NCBI RefSeq assembly: GCF_033153115.1
Contig: NW_026889779.1
Coordinates: 1,860,001-1,924,000 of the forward strand
Length of the DNA stretch: 64,000 bases
Direction of reading: 5' to 3'
Source: Saccostrea echinata
Lineage: Eukaryota
The notes under the pieces are model-generated. The model made no database searches, was not told the DNA's origin, and worked only from the letters and a program-made list of their open reading frames with translations. The translations under genes were made by a program, and so were the position numbers. Positions 17,401 through 62,910 of this stretch are shown piece by piece (position 1 is the stretch's first letter; every line of letters starts with the position of its first letter).

Positions 17401-20400
17401 ATCAAAATAGTAACTGGCTAGTAAGTAATGATTGTCACTGAAATAGTTAGATAACCTGAGATTTATCAAAATATAGTTATTTACTGGATGCATTTGTTTT
17501 AAATCATTTCCATAAACTTTCTTTGTTAAATAAATATAAATTGCAATTATTTTATAGATACTACTGGTAATGAGAAACTGAATGCATACAAACTTAAATA
17601 AGACCATATGAAATGTACAAACATAAAAAGGTGAAATTTTAAACACATGGAATTTAATCATTATGCTTACAGCAAAACTCTTTCTTTGAACAGCAATTAA
17701 TAGAGCAAATTTATGAATATAGCAAAGTATTTTAGGTATTTACATCACCAGATCTTAACATTTTATACATAATGGAGTCAATTCCTATTTATTTAGTACT
17801 GAATACACATTGTTGATTGCCCCTTCTATGGTATATTTTAGGAAATAATTTTACATTCAATGACTATCAGCTCCATACTCTATATATAAGAGATCTCCAT
17901 ACATTTATTCAAATGTTTCTGAAAAGGGGGTTGTTATGGACGCCTATGTAACACATCCGAGGTTATTTTTCCACTTGTTTTTTGATTTCGACACCATTTT
18001 TTGTATAAAACAGTTTCTAATATACAAACCAAACCTGAACAGAAATCTGGTAAAAAGGGACCAAAATTTTTTACTGCATGACCTTGAAGTTATACCTAGT
18101 TCTAAAATTTTTAAACTTTGCATGTTGGCTTTAAAACTTTTGCACCAGAAGAAACAGGAGTTTCATATTTTTTCAAGTGTATTACCTGTGAACATGATTT
18201 TCCTGAGTGTACTATGATTTTTAACCTTAATCATGAAGTTTGACCTGGATTTTAAAATTTTTAACTTAAGCTGTAATTTTCGCACTAGAAGAGAAAGACG
18301 TTTCACATATTTTCATATGTTCATTACCTTGCAGTGACAAGATGATGATTTTTGACCCCATGTCCTATAAGTACACCTCCAAATTTGACTTTCAAAAACT
18401 TGAACATTAGCCATAACTTTTGCACCAAAACATATACTGTACTGGGGGGGGGGGGGGGGGGTACTTAACCGAAAGCAGGGAACCACATTCTTGTTTCATT
18501 CACCTCTGTTTGTTCCTCAGTGTAGCCTATACTGGACTGGTATATATTACATGCTGTATTATATTTACCTCTGTTTGTTCCTCAGTGTATAAGCCTATAC
18601 TGAAGTAGTTTATTTTACATGCTATATTTACCTGTGTTTGTTCCTCAGTGTAGCCTATACTGGACTGTATGTAGTCCAGTTCTGCGTCTGTAATGGTGGA
18701 ATGTTTGGCTGGACTCTCAGCAATCAAAAAGCACCAGCATACAAACCACAGTATACCAAGGCTACCTACAATTTACACCAGAAAAAAGTCTGTGGGATCA
18801 AAATCTGGGATTTTTAATGATGTGGAAAATAACATCCAATGTGATAGATAAAAACAGAAAATGACAGTTATATTCTAATAAAGTGTGTCCAGTATACATG
18901 TACCTGTCTATGCATATACAGGTATGTAATAATACTTTTTTTTATTCATAATCCTAACAGTAATGATCAAGTCTACAGACTAAATAATTGACAGAATCAA
19001 CAACATGAACACACATTTATGTACAAGGCCCCATAATATGCATTTATCAATATGTTTTCAACCTTGGCATTGAGTACTTGTAGGGTGGCCTCAGAATCTA
19101 CTGGCTGGGTCTTTGTATAGTGAAAATGATATCTGTGTTTTGTGCTGTGTGAAAATGTAATGAAAATATGTTGATTTTGACCTCTGATTGTCTCAAAATC
19201 TTTCCACATTTCTTCTCTTACCAATGTTTCCCCATGTATGAGCCCATGGGCCACATTGCTCACCTATGCTTTTGGCTATGAAAAAGCATAATTCAGTTTG
19301 GTATTGAAAAGTTTAAATATATAAGTGGTTCCAACCTTCCCCTAATTGGGGGGGGGGGGGGGGAGGGAGGGAGGAGGGGGAAGCACATGATTTAAACAAA
19401 CTTGAATCTTCACTAACTGAGGATTCTACCATAATTCTTAAATTAATAATGGTCTTAAAAGATTTTTAAAGATTTTTTTCCCTTTAAGTTTGATTTCTGT
19501 TGTGGCCCACCACTTCCCTGGGTTTCGTGATTTCAACAAACTTGAATCTACACTGCCTGACAATGCTTCCTTACAAATATGACCAATCATGGCTTTGCTG
19601 TTCTTGAGAAGAAGTTTTTCTAAGATTTAAAAAGATTTTTCCTATGTATTTTTTATATCTAGTACACTACCTGAAGACACTTCTATAAATATGACTAAAT
19701 ATTGGTTTGCTGTTCTTGAGGAGGAGATTCTTAAAGATGTTTCCAATGTATTTCTATCTAAAACTTTGATTGTCGAATGTGGCTCTGCCCTGCCCCCAGG
19801 CCTGGGTCATGATTTGAACAATCTTAAATCTACAACACTGCCTGACAATGCTTCCATACAAACAAGAGCAATCATGGATTTGCTGTTCTTGAGGATAAGA
19901 TTTTCTAAGATGTTTCCTATGTATTTCTATGCTAAACTTTGATTGTCCATTGTGGCCCTGCCCTACCCCAGGAGGTCATGATTTGAACAAACTTGAATCT
20001 AAACAGCCTGACAATTCTTCCGTACAAATATGAGCAATCATGGATTTGCTGTTCTTGAGGAGAAGATTTTTAAGGATGTTTCCTATGTATTCCAAACTAT
20101 GTCAAACTTTGATCGTCCACTCTGGCCCCGCCCTAACCCCCCGGGGTCATGATTTGAACAAACTTGAATCTACACTGCCTGAGGATGTTTCCACACAAAT
20201 ATGAGCAATCATGGATTTGCTGTTCTTCAGGAGAAGATTTTCAAAGATGTTTCCTATGTTAAACTTTGATCATCCATTGTGGCCCTGCCCTACCCCTGGG
20301 GGTCATGAATTTAATCCCCAAGGAATATTTCTGCTTTTACAGTATTTGTAATGAAAACAGTCACAAATGTAAATAATTATATAATTAATTAGGTATCATT

Positions 20401-50540: not shown

Positions 50541-51475
50541 AAGTCTTAAAACTTGCTTTCGATGCCGATGGAATTCTCGCGGCGCCGCCCTACACTTCAC
50601 AATCATTGAGAATGGAAATGAGATACACTTATATATTTAAACATTAGTTTTATTAGAGGATCGTTACCGATACACATAGACAGGAAAACTGACAGAAAAC
50701 AAGTAGACTTAGAACAAAGAAAGAACTTTAGGATGCTACAGTTACTACCAGATATTACAGTAATATCAACAGCATACTTATTATAGGAAAAAAATACTAA
50801 AAGAAATAATGATAGATAAACGATATCTCTCAGCTTTTCATAGAATAGTAGCAAACCAAGAAACATCAGGTCTCTATCATACAACTTAAATTGATAAATT
50901 AACAAAGCTGGTTTATCAAATTGAATAAAATTTTAATCAAATATGGCTTACCAACAGCTCTAGAAACACTAAACTACATCAAGAACAAACAAAAACAAAG
51001 CAACACAAGCGATAGCATTTTACAAGCACCAGAGCTTCGTAGGCAGAAGGATAAAACGTACGCTCAACTAGGACCTTAGGTCACCGGCTCAGTTCACAAC
51101 TATCAAACCTGTTTACTCCGCGACAAAATGTAGTGCACTGCAACCTAAAGTGAAAATAGAATAAATCGCACTACTGTGAAGCTTTTACAGTGTAAAACAA
51201 CAAACAGAAAATCTATTTTTGTCAAAGGAATAATCATCTGATATGAGGAAAGATACAGAGGGAGCAACATTGACTGCAATATATTGTAAAATATGTTATA
51301 CAGCAATGGATTACGTAGGGTGACCTGTGGTCTCCCTAATGATATTATTATTCCATGTAAGGCAACAGTATCTATTTAAGACAGTACCTAACCTCTGATC
51401 TCCTTATTAATATATCAGGGTAGGCGACCTCCTGTCTCCACATTCGCACATCCAACAGGCAGGGGGAGGAGGTAC

Positions 51476-52036
51476 TGTAGTGTTTTTTTATTTCATAATA
51501 TACGATTTTCTATTTGAGTAGACTTAAGTAGTTAACTTTTATACTTAGAGTAAATTTTTGTTTATCGCTAGCTATAGGTAGCCTAATGGCGCCCTAATAA
51601 CATTGGGTGTCTTAGAGGCCTAATCATGTTAGGTGGTAAGAGGCCCTATAACTTGGTGCCCGACACCTAATGGTGGCCTAATCATGTTAGGTAGTAGGAG
51701 GCCCTATTATTTGGGTGCCTAATAGAAGCCTAATGGATGCCTAATAGAAGCCTAACTATATTGGGCTGTCGACAGGTATATATACAGGGTGAGAGAATAT
51801 GTGCGGCAGGCACTTCTCCCCTATTTCTTGATTTACTATGATGTTATGTTGATGTAAATTTCCATAATACAATTCGTTCTACAAAAGCAAAGTGTTGTTC
51901 TTATTGATCTATAAAGATCTCAAAATCCTACGCATGTGTTGCGAATAGCACAGGATCCACATAATTTTGTGACTTGTCTGGGGTTTAAGCAGATTTGGAT
52001 ATAATCACAAGCTACATTACCCTCAGTTGCGTTACA
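51476..52036 (+). repeat. 5' LTR (561 bp)
   Basis: tgtagtg...gcgttaca. TATA-like sequence at 51777. Confidence 0.97.
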
Positions 52037-52038
52037 AT

Positions 52039-52056
52039 TGGTGGCAGCGGTGGGAT
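52039..52056 (+). promoter_or_regulatory. Primer-binding site, tRNA-Leu
   Basis: TGGTGGCAGCGGTGGGAT is the reverse complement of ATCCCACCGCTGCCACCA, the 3' end of eukaryotic tRNA-Leu(AAG/UAG). Confidence 0.88.
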
Positions 52057-52106: not shown

Positions 52107-53552
52107 ATGGAAACACCAATGATAAGGAGAAGGATAACGCCGAGAAAGGTAGAACAAGATTTTGAAAGTCATTTGAATGACTCTGGAATTGGGAACTCAC
52201 CAGGGTTTGAGGGAGATGCACTACCCACAGGTCGAGTTGGGCCAGGCACACCTGATTTTCAGGACTGCAGGCCCACAAGTAGCTCGCAGGGTTGCTCTCC
52301 TGTAAAATCCGAGTTTCCTATGAGTATCTATAGAGAGAGGAGTGAGTCTAGACCGAGCTTAAAGAGAATCCTTTTCATTTGGTTTCTTTTTGCTTTGGTT
52401 GTGTGTTGTTTAATGTACATAGCCTGGACCTATTTTCCATTTAAAGAGATTGTTCAGCGATCTTATGAACACGCAACAATCTCTCTCGCATCCGCCGTGA
52501 GTGTAATACTGTTACTGATCATAACAGTATCATGGAAAAATGGGGGAACAAGCTCTGAAGCTGATGACCAGGTAAAAGAAATTTATCAGGGATCGAACTT
52601 TGGCTATTTTGGTGGCGAGGCATCTAACAGCCCAAAAGGTACCTATCAGGAACCTAATGTGGTTGGGCATCTGAGGCCTAATGCCCCTAATGTGGGTCAA
52701 GGTTCTTCTCTTGGTATAGGGCATAACTTAGAACTGCCGCTTGCTGATGCAACTCCTGTTAGCGGTCCAGTTAAAAGGACCCAGGATGAGATGGGCTCAC
52801 GGGTAAATGAATATCCAGTTAGGAGGACTTTTTCAGGAACAAACAATGATGTTTGGAATGAATTTTATCAATATTTTGAAAATATTGCTGAGCTGAACTC
52901 ATGGGGACCAGAGAAGTCTCGTCGAGTGCTGTTGAGTACACTGCGGGGCCAAGCAGAGAGTTACGCCTATGGGATACCCCTTGCAACTCAAAGGGACTAT
53001 GAACAGCTTAAACAAAAGATGGAGCAGCGATTTGGCCATTCGGCTATGAAGGAACGCTATATAGCTGATGCTAAACTAAGAAAGCGACAATCTGGAGAGT
53101 CCTTGAGGGATTTTGGACAAGCGATTGAAGACCTTTACAGGAGGGCTTATCCAGAAAACCCTGACATAGTTGAAGAAAATGCCATTAAGTCATTTTTGGA
53201 CAAATGTGGACAGTCTGAAGATTTTCGTCTGGCAGTGAAGAGGACCAGGCCTAAGACACTGCAGGAAGCTGTGCTAAATGCTATGCAAGAGGAATGCTTG
53301 CGAGTAGGAGAAAGAGAATTGTCGAAGGACCACAAAGTCGTCCACCGACAGATATATGAAATTGGAACTGAGACGGGGGAGAGTAATTTTAAGGTAGCTA
53401 CCGGTACCGCCAAGCCCCCAAGCGCGGGTGAAGGATTCCCCGGTACCCAAGAAAATCTGAGAAACCCCGAAACTTGTAGATATGGAAGGCTAGGAGGAAG
53501 GGGACGCCCTTATTATCCTAAGCACCGAAATGTTCAAACAGGGATACAATAG
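52107..53552 (+). CDS. gag: Gag with two N-terminal transmembrane helices and a capsid domain
   Basis: First ATG at 52107. CA-like FSG...W..F...FE..A..N.W...L...L.G.A and MHR-like RQSGESLRDF. The natural end is probably 53616 (QDLN*), after a frameshift. Confidence 0.88.
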   Translation: METPMIRRRITPRKVEQDFESHLNDSGIGNSPGFEGDALPTGRVGPGTPDFQDCRPTSSSQGCSPVKSEFPMSIYRERSESRPSLKRILFIWFLFALVVCCLMYIAWTYFPFKEIVQRSYEHATISLASAVSVILLLIITVSWKNGGTSSEADDQVKEIYQGSNFGYFGGEASNSPKGTYQEPNVVGHLRPNAPNVGQGSSLGIGHNLELPLADATPVSGPVKRTQDEMGSRVNEYPVRRTFSGTNNDVWNEFYQYFENIAELNSWGPEKSRRVLLSTLRGQAESYAYGIPLATQRDYEQLKQKMEQRFGHSAMKERYIADAKLRKRQSGESLRDFGQAIEDLYRRAYPENPDIVEENAIKSFLDKCGQSEDFRLAVKRTRPKTLQEAVLNAMQEECLRVGERELSKDHKVVHRQIYEIGTETGESNFKVATGTAKPPSAGEGFPGTQENLRNPETCRYGRLGGRGRPYYPKHRNVQTGIQ

Positions 53553-53606
53553 GTACACAATTCCTCGCGAACCTGCGAATTGTGTTGATAAAGAGAAAAG
53601 GCAAGA

Positions 53607-56600
53607 TTTAAACTAAATGCGACTGGTGCGGAAGGCCGGGTATCAGTCGGATTTAAGAGGCCTCAAGGAAATGAAGATTACAAGAAGGAGAGAAAGAAAA
53701 TATATTGGAAAAAGAGAAGAAAAAGTAAGGTAAATAGCAACCAGGATCATGACATCAAAGATGACGTCATTGAGAAGAACGGAAGTCGGGAGAAGACAGA
53801 AATGAAAACACAGCATACCGTAGTTGAAGGTATGCGCAATATGAGGGTTAAAGGAATGCTTGAAGGGACATCTATAGAGTGGAAAATAGATACTGGAGCA
53901 AAGCGGACGTTTGTGTCTAAAAAAAACTTTTGACAGCATCTTAGAGAAACCCACTCTAAGTCCTGTTAGTGCCACGTACGTTGTAGCGGATGGACGAACT
54001 TTGGATTGTGCTGGAGAGGCTACCATGGTACTAATCTTTGGTGACGATGCTTTTGAGCATCCAGTTATTGTAGGAGGTGTGAAGCATAACCTCCTTGGTG
54101 AAGATTTTATTGAAAAGTTTCGTTGTGGATGGGATCACGATGAAAAGAGTTTTATTATAAAAGGGGTCAAAGTACATTTGAGGGGCTCTGATGGAGTAGG
54201 GCCTGGAAGAGTGATAGCACTAGAGTCGACAGTTGTCCCAGCTGGTGGTGAAGCCCTGGTTCCTTCTGGACTCACTGGGCGTAATAAAACGAATTCAGGG
54301 GAATACCTCGGAGTTCTTACGCCTGAGAGACCTTTCATGGAACGGTATGGGTTAGCTATAGCAAGGACATTGGTTGATTCTAAAAATGCGGTAATCTACG
54401 CTAGGATATTTAACCCAAAAGCAGAGGATGTGAAGATCTACCGACATACGCACATAGCGTTATTTACCCCAATTTATAAAGTTGGACCAGTGTTTAAATT
54501 ACAAACAAGTAATAGCAATATAGAGCAAGTTGAAGTGAAGGATAGTTCGACTATTGACATCCCGGAATATCTACAGAATGTGTACAAAAAGGGATGCGAG
54601 CACCTTGATGAAACGCAAGCAAAAGTATTCAAAGAATTCATCATAAGTAAGCAAAATTGTTTTGCAAGACCAGGAGAAGTAGGAAGAACAAATCTTGGGT
54701 ACCATGAGATAAAACTTCAGGATGAAAAACCTATTCGGGAACCTCCAAGAAGAATTCCATTGCACAAGAGACAAGCTTTAGAGGAGGAAATTAAGAAATT
54801 AGAAAAACAGAACCTTATAGAAAAAAGTACAAGTCCCTGGTCATCTCAAATCGTTATGGTGCAGAAAAAGGACAAATCATGGAGGATGTGTGTTGACTAT
54901 AGGAAGTTGAATGAACAAACCATAAAGGATGCATATCCTTTGACAAGAATTAATGATAATTTAGATTCTCTCAATGGTGCAGAATGGTTTTCCTCCCTAG
55001 TTTCAGATATGGCGTACCACCAGGTACCTTTAGCAGAAGGTGACAAGGAAAAAAACTGCTTTTGCCACGCCTAGGGATGGACTGTACCAGTATATCACCA
55101 TGCCTTTCGGCCTGTGCAATGCAGCAGGTACATTTCAAAGAATTATAGAAAAAGCTCTTACCAATTTGCAGTGGTATGCTGCAGTACTGTATCTGGATGA
55201 TATTGTAGTATTTGGGAAGACGTTTGAAGAGCATTTTAAGAATTTAAACGAGGTTATGGACCGATTAGCAAAGGCTGGCCTGAAGCTCAAGCCGAAGAAA
55301 TGCCATTTCCTGAAGAAGAAAATAAGTTTCTTGGGACATGTGGTTTCAAAAGAAGGTATACAGACAGATCCAGAGAAGACAAAGGCAATAGATCAAATTC
55401 GAATACCGTCTTCTGTTAAAGAAGTGCGAAGTTTCCTAGGATTAGCCTGCTATTATCGAAAGTTTGTAAAAGATTACTCAAAGATTGCAAAGCCTCTATA
55501 CGACCTCACTAAGCAAGATAAGAAATATCTCTGGACAGATGATTGCCAAAGAGCGTTTGAAGAACTTAAGTTAAGGTTGACATCAGCACCTATCTTGGCA
55601 TATCCAAATATGGAAGGAGACGAGTTTATACTTGATACTGATGCTAGTGCCTTTGCTATTGGAGCAGTTTTGTCTCAAAAGCAAGATGGTAAGGAGAGGG
55701 TTATAGCCTATGGAAGCAGGACACTTAATAAGCCAGAAAGGAATTATTGTGTTACAAGAAGAGAAATGTTGGCTGTAGTATACTTTACAAGGTATTTCAA
55801 GCATTATCTACTAGGGAAAAGGTTTACACTTAGGACTGATCATGGTTCTCTCACATGGCTGAAAAATTTCAAAGAACCTGATGGCCAAATACACAGGTGG
55901 ATTCAGCAACTTAGTCAGTTTCACATGAAGATAGTGCATAGGCCAGGAAGCAGACATGGAAATGCAGATGCAATGTCAAGGTTAACAGAATTACCAAAAG
56001 AAGTATGTAAGCAATGCAAAATGCCGAGTAACTTCATGTATCAAGGACCTACAGAAGTAGACGTTCCATATATGAAAGAGGGACAGCAAGATGATAGAGT
56101 GCAAGCTGTGAGTAATGAAGAAGTTTTAGAGGAGGATTCAGAATCTGAAAGTCCTAACTTATTCCCAAATAATGGAAGTAATGGTGGACTAGATGATTCA
56201 AATGTGGCTGATGGAATGCCTATTTTGAGGAGAGGTAGAAAGGTAAACAGACCCGCACCTGCGAAACAAAGACTCAGACCCAAGCTCGATCTTAACTACA
56301 CTACACTGAGAAAGGAGCAAGAGGATGATACAGTAATTGGAAAAATACTTAAGCTGAAAGAGAGCAATGCTGAGAAACCAGAAAAGGATAAAATTATAGC
56401 AGAGAGTCCAGAATTTAAATTTTGGTTGTCAAGGTGGGAGATATTGGAGGTGAGAGATGGGGTTCTTTGTATCCTATGGGAAGATAGTTCAAAAAGATGG
56501 CGGATCTGTGCCCCAAAATCTATTTTGCATGTTGTAATGTGGCACCTACACGACTCCAAGCTATCAGGACATCAAGGAATTAAGAAAACTGTGGAAAAAG

Positions 56601-57919
56601 CAAAGATTTGTCCATTTTACTGGTGGGGTATTGTACGAGATATAAGAGAGTATGTGCAGAAATGCGAGATATGTGAGGAACGGAAAGACCCCCCAAACAA
56701 AAAGCGTCATTTTCTACAGAAGTATGTTGTAGGCGGCCCATTTGAGAGAATTGCCACGGACCTCGCAGGACCATTCCCAACTACTGAGAGGGGGAATCGC
56801 TACATATTAGTAATAGGAGATTATTTTACCAAATTGACGGAAGCGTATCCATTAGAAAATATAACAGCTGAGACTGTAGCTGATGTTTTGTTTCGTGCAT
56901 GGATAAAAAGATATGGTTGTCCAGCTGAGGTGCACTCCGACCAAGGGAGACAGTATGAAAGTGCTTTATTTCTTGAGTTGTGTCGAATGTTACAGGTTAA
57001 TAAGACGAGGACAACTCCTCTACATCCAAGGTCGGATGGCATGATAGAGAGGATGAATAGGACCATACAAGACATGCTGTCAAAGTACATAAAGAGTCAT
57101 CAAAAAGACTGGGATCTACATTTGGATTATATCACCTTGGCATATAATTCAACGCCTCATGAGAGTACTAGTGTATCGCCTCATAAAATGGTATTTGGAA
57201 GAGAAATTAAACTACCACTTGACTTTATGGCGAATAATGTAGTTGAAGAGGAAACGTTTGAGACAGATTTTGTGCGGAATTTGAGAGATAACTTGTGCCA
57301 GGCTCACGAATTTGCACGCAAGTCCTTGCAGAAATCGTCAGAAAGGCAGAAACAACAGTATGATTTGAAAGTTAGGGAAAAGAGCTATGAGATAGGTCAA
57401 TTAGTGTGGAGGAACCAGAAAATAGTTACACCAGGAAAAAAACAGAAAATATGCAGGAATTGGAATGGCCCCTGGGTAATAACAAAGAAGATTAGTGAAG
57501 TACTCTACAAAATCCAACATAAGGAGGACTTACCTGGAGTTGTCGTCCACGGGGATAATTTAAAAGAATACAAAGGGGAAAAGAAAATTAATTGGTTTAA
57601 TGGAGGATTTCAGGAAGAAAGTTTGCCTACAGAACTACCAAATTTAGAGGCTTTTAAAGATGCTGACCATTTAGAAAGAAATTGTGAAATAAAATCCAGA
57701 AATAAAGACAAATTCGCAGACGCCGAACCGGGACCTAACGCAGACACCGAATTAGAATCGGAGTCGGACGCCGAAATGAGATCGGGTACAGAGTCTGCAA
57801 TTATTGTAAACAGAAATGCCACGAGGTTTGGAAGAAGTGTAAGAAAGCCCGAAAAATTTAAAGATTATGTTAGTAATGTACAGCTAAAGAATGGATGTTC
57901 GGAAATCGGTATTATGTAA
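53607..57919 (+). CDS. pol: Pol (PR, dUTPase-like insert, RT, RNase H, IN), split by two +1 frameshifts
   Basis: PR IDTGA (~53890). RT WRMCVDYRKLN, MPFGLCNA, YLDD. RH LDTDAS, EMLAVV, TDH. IN H-H-C-C, D(LAGP), D(QGR), ERMNRT. Frameshifts in A-runs at ~53920 and ~55050. Confidence 0.95.
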
Positions 57920-58721
57920 ATATTGTGGAAAGTTATTTGCTAGCGTGAAAAATCTAAAACGACATGAAAATCAAAGACACAAGAACATTGTCAAAGTGAG
58001 GAAGTGCCCCTTAGATAACTGTGGAATTTATACCTTTAGATTAGAATACTTAGTGTCCCACCTGAAGAGATTTCACGGAAAACAGCACAATGATGCTAAG
58101 GAAATCGCAAAATTATCGATAATAGAACTTAAAGAGAGAGAGGAAATTAAGGAAATAAATCTGAAGATTCGTGCCCGTCAAAAACAAAGGATGATGGATA
58201 GAGAGAATAACAACACATCATTGGTATTAGGGGACGAAGAAGACATTTTGGATATTGACGTGCCAAAAGAGGAACAAGAGACAATAGATTTTGATATACT
58301 GGAGGAAGACTGGGTGAATACTCTCTTAGAGGGAATTTCTGGAGAAAAAGAGGAATTAGATGATCATGTGTCAGAAATTTCGAATGAAAGTAAAGAAATC
58401 GTGCAACCATTAGAAGAGGACGTGCCAAAAGACAACGAAGAAATAGAGTGTGATCCTGATGAGAATGTTAAACAAGGAGAGCCTTCTTCAGCAACAGATG
58501 TATCGGAAGTCGTAGAGACCATCACTATCAATCTAGTAACTACGAGAAGAATAACACCCAATGGTATTTCCATCAGGCGGAATCATCAAATATCTACTTC
58601 TAGATTTATCCGACCGGAACAGATTGACTGGATGAATTTCTTTTCCTATCTGCAAAATGAAATACTTGAGTACGCTAAGGAAGAACACGAGAGGGATTGT
58701 GACGCGGAAGACTTAGACTAA
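57891..58721 (+). CDS. ORF3: two C2H2 zinc fingers plus an acidic domain (276 aa)
   Basis: CKYC-x12-HENQRH and CPLDNC-x12-HLKRFH, then a D/E-rich C-terminal half. Intact, overlaps the pol stop by 29 nt, and lies inside the element. Confidence 0.85.
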   Translation: MDVRKSVLCKYCGKLFASVKNLKRHENQRHKNIVKVRKCPLDNCGIYTFRLEYLVSHLKRFHGKQHNDAKEIAKLSIIELKEREEIKEINLKIRARQKQRMMDRENNNTSLVLGDEEDILDIDVPKEEQETIDFDILEEDWVNTLLEGISGEKEELDDHVSEISNESKEIVQPLEEDVPKDNEEIECDPDENVKQGEPSSATDVSEVVETITINLVTTRRITPNGISIRRNHQISTSRFIRPEQIDWMNFFSYLQNEILEYAKEEHERDCDAEDLD

Positions 58722-58985: not shown

Positions 58986-58994
58986 AAGGAGGGA
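58986..58994 (+). promoter_or_regulatory. Polypurine tract
   Basis: aaggaggga, 4 nt before the 3' LTR. Confidence 0.7.
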
Positions 58995-58998
58995 CCAT

Positions 58999-59557
58999 TG
59001 TAGTGTTTTTTTATTTCATAATATACGATTTTCTATTTGAGTACACTTAAGTAGTTAACTTTTATACTTAGAGTAAATTTTTGTTTATCGCTAGCTATAG
59101 GTAGCCTAATGGCGCCCTAATAACATTGGGTGTCTTAGAGGCCTAATCATGTTAGGTGGTAAGAGGCCCTATAACTTGGTGCCCGACACCTAATGGTGGC
59201 CTAATCATGTTAGGTAGTAGGAGGCCCTATTATTTGGGTGCCTAATAGAAGCCTAATGGATGCCTAATAGAAGCCTAACTATATTGGGCTGTCGACAGGT
59301 ATATATACAGGGTGAGAGAATGTGCGGCAGGCACTTCTCCCCTATTTCTTGATTTACTATGATGTTATGTTGATGTAAATTTCCATAATACAATTCGTTC
59401 TACAAAAGCAAAGTGTTGTTCTTATTGATCTATAAAGATCTCAAAATCCTACGCATGTGTTGCGAATAGCACAGGATCCACATAATTTTGTGACTTGTCT
59501 GGGGTTTAAGCAGATTTGGATATAATCACAAGCTACATTACCCTCAGTTGCGTTACA
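58999..59557 (+). repeat. 3' LTR (559 bp)
   Basis: Differs from the 5' LTR by 1 substitution and one 2-nt indel, by eye. Confidence 0.97.
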
Positions 59558-60254
59558 GTACATTATAGGTCTTGCCCCCCACCCCGCTCGGACTCTTCAC
59601 TGATCCTTAAAGATAATGGAATAATTATTTGGTAATAAATCATATTAGGTGTCCTCTGGTCTCCCTTTTGAGGTCATACCTCAATAGGCGACCTTATCAG
59701 TTTAACACTCTAGTAAACCTCTGGTTAATATTAATCTTACAGAGTAGATGTATGCCCAGTCTTGCAAGGATGGAGGCTGAAGTTCTCCTCCCCTTTCCCT
59801 GGAATTTACTCTTATCAAATTCATAAACGAATCAAAACTACTAGTATATTTTCCAAAATAATAAACTTAAAAAACATGGATTCATTGTCAATTGCTTGTG
59901 GGATACATATACTGTATATGAAGGAAAAGTTGTCTAATGTCATCCCCATCCAATTACATAAATTTAGAAAATTAATTTGGAGAAATTGTGAAATTGTTGG
60001 CTTGCAAAAAAAACAGGGTCTCAATTTTTGTTTGGAGTGAATTTGAAAAATAATTCTTCACATGGAACATTTTTTAAATTGTCTTCTTATAACTTCAAAA
60101 GTTTTCCTAATAATGAACAATATAAGATTACCTCTGGTCTACTGTTTCATATACCACTTCGTCTGACCTCTGATATCCTTATTGATGTACAATATAAGAC
60201 AAACTCATGTTTCCATATTCTTTATGTGGGGAGCAGAGGAAACATAAAGTTTAT

Positions 60255-62326
60255 ATGAATAGGGAGACCATAGGTCCCCTTATATTGTACATCATTGGGA
60301 GGATCAAAGATCACATTGTATTGTACATCAAAAGAAAGACAAGAGGTCCCCTTATATCCTACATCTATAGGGAGACCAGAGGTCCCCTTACATCCTACAT
60401 CTATAGGGAGACCAGAGGACACCTTATATTGTACATAATTAGGGGGACCAGAGGTCACCTTATATCCAATATTAATAGGGAGACCAGAGGTCCCCTCATA
60501 TCCTACATCTTTAGGGAGACCAGAGGACACCTTGTATTGTACATCAATAGGGAACCCAGGGATCATTTGTACATCAACAGGGAGACCAAAGGTCCCCTTA
60601 TATCCTACATCAGTAGGGAGACCAGAGGACACTTTATATATTACATCAATAGGGAGACCAGAGGTCCCCTATATCGTACACCAACAGGGAGACCAGAGGT
60701 CCCCTTATATCCTACATCCATAGGGAGACCAGAGGACACCTTATATTGTACATCAAAAGGGAGACCAGAGATTTCTTATATTGTACACCAATAGGGAGAC
60801 CAAAGATCCCCTTATACCCTACATCAGTAGGGAGACCAAAGGATACCTTATATTTAACATCAATAGGGAGACCAGAGGTCACCTTATATTGTACATTAGT
60901 AGAGAGACCAGAAGTCACATTATATTGTACATGAATACGGAAACCTGGGGTCCCCTTATTTTATTAATCATTGGGGTGACCATATTTCATATAAAAGTGT
61001 TTTTAAATACGGAGACCAGATCGCGTCTTATGTTGTACATTATTCAAGAGACCAGAGATCACATAAAGTTGTGTATGAATATGAAGACCAGAGGACACCC
61101 TATATTGTTCATCATATGCAGACCACTGGTCACATAAGGCTGTGTATAATATGAATACGGAGACCAGAGGTCCCCTAATATTGTACATCAATAGGGAGAC
61201 TAGAGGTAACATATATTGTATTGTACATAAATACGGAGACCAGAGGACACCTTATATTGTAAAGAATTAGGGAGACCAGAGGTAACTTATTTTGTACATC
61301 GATAGGGAGACCAGAGGACACCTTATATTGTACATAATAAGGGGGACCAGAGGTCACCTTATATTGTACATCAATAGGGAGACAAGAGGTCACTTACTTT
61401 GTACATCAATAGGGAGACTAGAGGTAACATATATTGTATTGTACATAAATACGGAGACCAGAGGACACCTTATATTGTAAAGAATTAGGGAGACCAGAAG
61501 TAACTTATTTTGTACATCGATAGGGAGACCAGAGGACACCTTATATTGTACATAATAAGGGGGACCAGAGGTCATCTTATATTGTACATCAATAGGGAGA
61601 CCAGAGGACACTGTATATTGTACATAATTAGGGAGACTAGAGGTAACTTATTTTGTACATCAATAGGGAGAGCAAGGTCACCTTATATTGTAGATCAATA
61701 GGAACACCAAAGGTCCCCTTATATCCTACATCATTAGGGAGACCAGAGATCCCCTTATATCCTACATCTCTAGGGAGACCAGAGGACACCTTATATTGTA
61801 CATCATTAGGGAGACCAGAGGTCACCATATATCCTGCATCAGTAGGGAGACCAGAAGACACCTTATATTGTACATCAATAGGGAAACCAGAGATCACTTA
61901 TATTGTACATCAATAGGGAGACCAAAGGTCCCCTTATATCCTACATCAGTAGGGAGACCAGAGGACACTTATATTGTACATCAGTAGGGAAACCAGAAGA
62001 CACCTTATATTTGACATCAATAGGGAGACCAGAGGTCACCTTATATTGTACATTAGTAGGGAGACCACAGGTCCCCTTATATCCTACATCAGTAGGGAGA
62101 CCAGAAGACACCTTATATTGTACATCAATAGGGAAACCAGAGATCACTTATATTGTACAGCAATAGGGAGACCAAAGGTCCCCTTATATCATCATTAGTA
62201 GGGAGACCAGAGGACACCTTATATTGTACATCAATATGGAAACCAGAGGACATCTTCTATTTTACATCAATAGGGAGACCAGAAGTCACCTTATATTGTA
62301 CATTAGTAGGGAGAACAGAAGTCACA
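60255..62326. repeat. ~36-bp minisatellite array
   Basis: Unit agggagaccagaggacaccttatattgtacatcaat, repeated about 55 times with variants. Confidence 0.95.
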
Positions 62327-62910
62327 TCTATACTTATAAATTAATAAATTTTGCAAATAAACTCCGAAACGGGTGCACCAGAGTTCTTACTTACTCCTCT
62401 AACAATACACTAGATACAAGATGATGTCCGTAAACTATATTTATATTTCACTCGCAAAGTAAGTTTCGTACATTAAATTAAAAGTCTACTTTTATTTTCT
62501 ATAAACAGCCATGAAATAGCAAAAACGTGAGTACGGTGGCGTTTCCGGTTGGCGGATCTAAGTTGCTGGCAATTTTTAATGAAACTGACAACAAGCAATC
62601 GTGTATATATTTCATAAAACGTCATCACTGAATTATTCAATCAAAACTTGATTTAAATGATATTAAAGGAAATAAGTTGTGATAACCGATTAAAAAGGGA
62701 AATTGTAAATTATTTTCGTCATTCACCGATCTTAATATTGACGGAAGCTTCTAGAACATCATATAGCATCGAGCCCGATGTTTAAAAAAACGAGGTGCAT
62801 ATAGCTGCATAACATAAAAAAAGGCTTTTGTGTGATTGGTCATTGAAATAATGGTAAATCATTGATAACACTAAAAGTTGTGAATATATTTATATATCGA
62901 AAGACTATTA

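Follow-up and report, generated by a model that had tools for sequence, protein, structure and literature searches.

The question raised by this locus in the oyster Saccostrea echinata is which protein, if any, reads the CCTAA boxes that recur in front of the putative promoter of a long terminal repeat (LTR): the two C2H2 zinc fingers encoded by the same element, or a factor of the host. The whole stretch of 64,000 nucleotides that was analysed is hereafter called the window. The answer we favor, at a probability of roughly 0.4, is that the array may be a U3 enhancer read by a candidate host factor.

The retrotransposon carrying the array

The features of the element that carries the boxes are listed below.

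51472..51475 (left) and 59558..59561 (right): target-site duplication GTAC, 4 bp
51476..52036, + strand: 5' LTR, 561 bp, with TG...CA ends
51777..51784, + strand: TATA box TATATATA, 20 bp past the last box (putative function)
near 51811, + strand: initiator-like CACTT, about 30 bp downstream of the TATA box (putative function)
52039..52056, + strand: primer-binding site, as read from the sequence
52107..53552, + strand: gag-like ORF with a DUF1759 match below the cut-off
53592..57919, + strand: pol, split over three overlapping frames (protease, RT, RNase H, integrase)
57891..58721, + strand: finger module ("ORF3"), 276 aa, in a fourth frame that overlaps the pol frame at 57888-57919
58986..58994, + strand: polypurine tract
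58999..59557, + strand: 3' LTR, 559 bp, with the same box array (array copy at 59105-59287)

Pfam analysis of pol recovered RT, RNase H and integrase in Gypsy order, together with a weak protease match (E 0.097). By its LTR ends, target-site duplication, primer-binding site, polypurine tract and order of pol domains, the element is a Ty3/Gypsy LTR retrotransposon. Its primer-binding site is presumably of the tRNA-Leu type; a search of the window for tRNA genes returned none. The 5' and 3' LTRs differ by one substitution and one 2-bp indel, and this copy of the element is young. The pol frames overlap at 53890-53933 and 55034-55074, the frame overlaps sit at or near A-runs, and the split of the pol and module frames may reflect either assembly error or decay. 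Near the N-terminus of the gag-like product, ahead of its capsid-like part, two long hydrophobic, membrane-like segments are encoded (52370-52535).

The sequence TATATATA, which fits the TATAWAWR consensus perfectly, starts 20 bp after the last box, as the original prediction had placed it. The region of the array is probably U3, as deduced from this TATA box and the initiator-like site.

Elsewhere in the window, 166-bp and 156-bp tandem arrays with GACA/GACG microsatellites at their ends were observed (10848-14301, 19505-20314 and 5339-6739), which presumably resemble the Helentron-borne satellite repeats of oysters. A 276-codon open frame at 893-1723 (+ strand) had no Pfam match, and to the right of the element lies a 36-bp tandem array with inverted segments and several ATTAGG inside (60100-62360).

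Composition of the array

51582..51764, + strand: box array with 9 forward CCTAA, 2 reverse copies and 4 degenerate CCTA(A)..TTGG dyads

CCTAAT had been reported at 51582, 51593, 51619, 51666, 51677, 51718, 51729 and 51740, and CCTAAC at 51751, along with two reverse copies; all of these were recovered at exactly those positions, the reverse copies being TTAGG at 51629 and 51687. The exact 11-bp spacing claimed for many boxes holds for five of the eight intervals between the nine forward boxes (11, 26, 47, 11, 41, 11, 11 and 11 bp). The four degenerate dyads start at 51593, 51645, 51703 and 51751.

The array represents a real local enrichment. Over the whole window CCTAAT is not enriched (50 occurrences, 46 expected). 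In the 204-bp stretch the most frequent 6-mer occurs 8 times, against at most 6 times in any of 2000 dinucleotide shuffles, and when the same test was applied to the whole LTR, none of 2000 shuffles reached 8 copies. TTAGG was counted 11 times in the array versus 1.25 expected (0 of 1000 shuffles).

The composition of the boxes bears on the alternative offered along with the original prediction, namely that host homeodomain proteins read them as TAAT sites. TAAT is indeed found in 8 of the 11 sites, and three sites read CTAATGG, which we assume to be a Hox/Isl-like site. However, the invariant core is CCTAA (11 of 11), the three sites that read CCTAAC are devoid of TAAT, and the bases 3' of TAAT, which are those that homeodomains read, vary (GG, AA, CA, AG), while the 5' CC is constant. 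The homeodomain reading is weakened by these observations, and we consider it very unlikely. Four other readings were set aside: the telomere repeat (only 1 of the 11 boxes is CCCTAA), the CArG box (the spacers do not fit CC(A/T)6GG), the CCAAT box (only two ATTGG are present) and a Zelda-type site. TAGGTAG occurs twice and CAGGTAT once in the array (51575, 51688 and 51772); we take them to resemble fly Zelda-type sites, probably by chance in a mollusc.

Origin of the array and possible sparing of its half-sites

51615..51717, + strand: 58-bp tandem duplication holding both perfect dyads, 28/30 alike
51717..51755, + strand: 11-bp tandem run, 3.5 copies

The array grew by short tandem duplications with units of 11, about 26 and 58 bp, and echoes of older duplications, of 74 and 84 bp, are also found in it. 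Consequently, while the LTR context and U3-like position assigned to the array by the original prediction are borne out, its boxes are not independent copies: the 11-bp run and the 58-bp duplication yield much of the box count, which thus overstates the independent evidence. The two CCTAA-N5-TTAGG dyads are present as described (51619-51633 and 51677-51691), but they are identical copies inside the 58-bp duplication and hence stand for one event. Apart from the 11-bp steps, helical phasing of the boxes (R 0.75 at 10.5 bp) is not counted as evidence, because duplication by itself generates phasing.

This tandem origin favors a neutral explanation, according to which the polymerase slipped on its template in the course of reverse transcription, multiplying a short unit and leaving boxes without a reader. 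A related LTR piece from sequencing run X2, with 9 differences over 148 bases at a depth of 4.5, is on the same side. It looks like a decayed copy, its loose ends differing also at the 51619 box and the TATA box; two of its five listed differences fall in half-sites, which is about the share of positions that half-sites occupy, and the piece therefore shows no half-site sparing.

The duplicated units in the window behave otherwise. Within the 58-bp duplicate, none of 19 half-site positions differ versus 8 of 26 other positions (p 0.014), or 0 of 19 versus 5 of 23 when three end mismatches are taken as one indel (p 0.053), with half-sites that were defined after inspection and only 5-8 changes behind the comparison. 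A composite unit, consisting of a short box, 11 bp and a dyad, occurs three times (51582, 51666 and 51740), both half-sites being kept and the spacer changed. The sparing and the composite units would point to selection on the CCTAA / TT(A)GG half-sites. That half-sites were kept while spacers and flanks diverged among old units, that the boxes occur in both orientations and that the array stops right at the TATA box all argue against a purely neutral by-product, which we regard as improbable.

U3 is also transcribed into the 3' end of the genomic RNA, and the boxes might serve an RNA structure there. The computed fold of the stretch has an energy of -77.3 kcal/mol (z -3.7), a stability that none of 200 shuffles reached, but the long stem is formed by the two duplicated dyads pairing together and is itself a consequence of the duplication; such a role seems to us hardly credible.

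Tandemly repeated enhancer motifs are an established feature of U3 in retroviruses and retrotransposons. The array is similar to them in that duplication multiplied a short motif immediately before the TATA box, where it is found in both LTRs; it is unlike them in that the motif is present both in 11-bp tandem and as dyads.

Structure and conservation of the finger module

The ORF3 product consists of two C2H2 fingers with a helix-strand extension (residues 1-111), an acidic region (112-205; 35 Asp and Glu in 93 residues) and a C-terminal domain composed of a beta-hairpin and a helix (206-276). Compared with the nearest relative, the fingers are 94% identical, the extension 63%, the acidic part 46% and the C-terminal domain 76%, and the claim of a two-finger protein thus proved to describe a real and strongly conserved module. 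The closest relative of the module among named proteins is from Magallana gigas (69% identity over 107 residues).

A profile search for the module returned 76 proteins at E of at most 0.001, of which 36, mostly single-stretch matches, were taken. After generic multi-finger matches and fragments had been dropped, the scored set comprised 32 rows with both fingers, i.e., a main group of 25 (the window included, with some near-duplicates) and a second group of 7. Named carriers are Mytilus coruscus, M. edulis, M. galloprovincialis, Pecten maximus, Pinctada imbricata and Magallana gigas. By these sequences, "ORF3" is a conserved module of bivalve Gypsy elements with a Tramtrack-like finger pair.

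The fingers have the classical C2H2 fold with conserved base-contact residues at -1, +2, +3 and +6. Among the 25 rows of the main group, Asn+3 is present in 24, Arg+6 in 25, Arg-1 in 24, Glu/Asp+2 in 25 and Tyr+3 in 25. The second group (P0034, P0035, P0046, P0064, P0069, P0075 and P0094) has no Glu+2 and a variable finger 1. In the AlphaFold2 model, the fingers and extension have a pLDDT of more than 90, and the acidic part is disordered.

Among natural proteins in the PDB, Tramtrack69 (PDB 2drp) matches the family profile best (E 3.6e-6), and it is also the top Foldseek row (E 0.024). Both proteins possess two HX4H fingers, an 8-residue linker and the combinations Asn+3/Arg+6 and Arg-1/acidic+2 (Asp/Glu+2). 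The module differs from Tramtrack69 in having Tyr rather than Asn at finger 2 +3, a basic residue at finger 1 +2 and the helix-strand extension, in lacking a BTB domain and in being retrotransposon-borne.

The C-terminal domain modelled alone by AlphaFold2 was again a beta-hairpin and a helix (mean pLDDT 88). It had no Pfam match, a fold search returned no chain at Z of at least 5, and its best alignment with the COMM domain reached Z 3.5 (rmsd 8.4, 67 aligned). The ESM Atlas gave no usable match for this domain, and the whole protein retrieved generic C2H2 clusters only. Prediction of a dimer of the domain, run without an alignment, scored 0.04. A conserved Asp-Trp was observed in it (58506-58718).

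Position of the module relative to Pol

In most relatives that permit a judgement, the module is not the free-standing gene that the name "ORF3" implies. At least 28 residues lie upstream in the frame of the module in 16 of the 31 rows examined, and the integrase tail motif was recognized by eye in all 16, which form about 12 separate clusters and include some annotation gene models; the remaining 15 rows start at a conserved Met and so cannot show linkage to Pol. P0083, 57% identical to pol of the window, encodes RT, integrase and the module in a single frame, and the frame of P0144 (1718 aa) likewise extends from the protease through the C-terminal domain. Wherever it can be judged, the module thus continues the Pol frame in most relatives. 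In every one of the 16 upstream-extended rows, a Met precedes the first Cys by no more than 12 residues, which makes a stand-alone product plausible as well. Apparently the module is an appendage of Pol, and translation from the conserved Met may also yield it on its own.

Fit of the fingers to the boxes

The main rival to a host reader is that the fingers of the element bind the CCTAA boxes, resulting in self-activation or protection from silencing. The module would be made from the internal Met or cut from Pol, finger 2 would dock on TAG, Arg+6 of finger 1 on the next G and the extension on the adjoining T, whereas the acidic and C-terminal parts would recruit the transcription or chromatin machinery. 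The near-invariance of the base-contacting residues across the 25 rows, the acidic middle region and the conserved Met all favor this possibility. There is also a precedent, as VANC proteins bind tandem motifs in their own transposons according to the accessible parts of PMC5735166 and PMC6719617.

The original prediction argued that a 6-bp site is what two fingers read, but this is a match of length only. The canonical site of Tramtrack69 is given as AGGAC in the accessible part of bioRxiv 10.1101/338285, and the common pairing rule, as worded in the part of PMC12006351 available to us, joins Arg to guanine and Asn to adenine. Since the conserved residues match those of Tramtrack, and with this pairing, the expected core of the fingers is GGA. 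On their G-rich strand, the 11 boxes have TTAGG and then C in 7 cases, T in 3 and G in 1, and the A expected for Asn+3 after GG is present in none of them; enrichment of GGA was sought in the array and in the LTR and was not found. On the other hand, the GG step suits both conserved arginines, and AGG makes up the first three bases of the Tramtrack site. Considering that the residue-to-base code is approximate, and that the basic residue at finger 1 +2 and the extension could shift the docking, the missing A lowers the self-binding idea without excluding it. Moreover, a module in frame with integrase (16 rows and the 1718-aa Pol) fits a tether equally well. We hold self-binding to be possible, but would sooner doubt than accept it.

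DNA of distant relatives was sought in viral contigs (with protein, family-alignment and integrase queries) and in metagenome and genome contigs, and no locus was obtained; two of the viral-contig runs each counted one confirmed stretch and returned 0 loci. A scan of viral contigs for three boxes at 11-bp spacing gave 70 loci, none with a relative of pol or of the finger module.

A possible host reader and the role that would be left to the fingers

Taken together, the local enrichment, the position relative to the TATA box, the half-site sparing and the finger residues, which predict a GGA that was not found, support a host factor as the reader of the array. Post hoc half-sites, the X2 copy with no sparing, the fit of GG to the arginines and the AGG shared with the Tramtrack site count against it. 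By this account, the array would be a promoter-proximal enhancer of the LTR, situated directly upstream of the consensus TATA box in both LTRs. Short tandem duplications built it, and selection presumably kept the CCTAA / TT(A)GG half-sites while the spacers drifted. Several copies of one sequence-specific protein would load on one face of the helix at the 11-bp steps, and the same protein would also load head-to-head across the 5-bp spacer of the dyads, driving transcription from about 51810. A host factor seems a likelier reader of TTAGG/CCTAA than either a TAAT-reading homeodomain or the element's own fingers. The finger module, in turn, would read a separate GGA-type site, for example as a tether of integrase or for some action elsewhere.

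Should the boxes not be the target of the fingers, tethering of integrase is the leading role for them. One insertion provides a lead in this direction, namely that the fingers may tether integrase to CCTAA or GGAG at target sites. Three CCTAA occur within 200 bp on either side of the insertion (51276-51475 and 59562-59761) versus 0.5 expected (p 0.017), and 1 of 127 background windows has three. At this one insertion the left flank (51463-51471) ends in GGGGAGGAG, a GGA-type site as predicted for the fingers, which abuts the target duplication; two GGAG are found in fewer than 1 in 100 of the 24-bp windows. The X2 contig, which aligns with 59264-59560, has a related LTR end and a different flank, which also begins with GTA, hinting at a local target preference like GTAY.

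Relation to known systems and significance

Foamy-virus Tas and HTLV Tax are trans-activators of Retroviridae. The module would act in a similar way if it activates its own LTR via repeated U3 elements.

In Arabidopsis VANDAL elements, VANC proteins are element-encoded readers of the element's own repeats (accessible parts of PMC5735166, PMC6719617 and PMC12859917). In both cases an element-encoded accessory protein is accompanied by tandem short motifs inside the element. VANDALs are, however, plant DNA transposons, VANC is not reported in those parts as C2H2 fingers fused to Pol, and its binding has been demonstrated, while that of the module is hypothetical.

An integrase C-terminal chromodomain occurs in chromoviruses and some metazoan Ty3/gypsy clades, according to the part of PMC13524379 at hand. 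It is likewise an accessory domain appended to integrase in the Pol frame, but the module is a predicted DNA-reading C2H2 pair with an acidic stretch, an extra C-terminal domain and a conserved internal Met. Bdelloid LTR retrotransposons also carry an extra coding module between pol and the 3' LTR, their non-envelope ORF3s being esterases, exonucleases or membrane proteins in the accessible part of PMC5408684; the terms "zinc" and "C2H2" are absent from that text.

A full-text literature search, to which Repbase records and subscription journals were out of reach, returned no description of a C2H2 module behind a Gypsy integrase in bivalves, and an earlier mention is possible. By term search, "zinc" is absent from PMC6238403, PMC8556966, PMC10886601, PMC13524379 and PMC5408684, and the accessible parts of PMC8905726, PMC10547256, PMC7614390 and PMC5127561 hold nothing on the finger module.

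The box array of the LTR alone is ordinary; what is unusual is that Gypsy elements of oyster, mussels, scallop and pearl oyster carry a conserved DNA-binding module behind the integrase. Tentatively, and against our own preference, a bivalve Gypsy lineage may encode its own transcription factor, consisting of Tramtrack-like fingers and an acidic region, appended to Pol yet startable from its own Met, which would bind phased CCTAA boxes in its own U3 and activate the element or shield it from silencing. If true, VANC and the trans-activators of complex retroviruses would have a counterpart in an animal LTR retrotransposon. The array offers a direct and cheap test of self-activation, and the second finger group a natural test of co-variation. 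Each of the two likely roles of the module would be a novelty among these elements, be it a transcription factor or anti-silencer of the element's own making or a tether that reads sequence and so directs integration.
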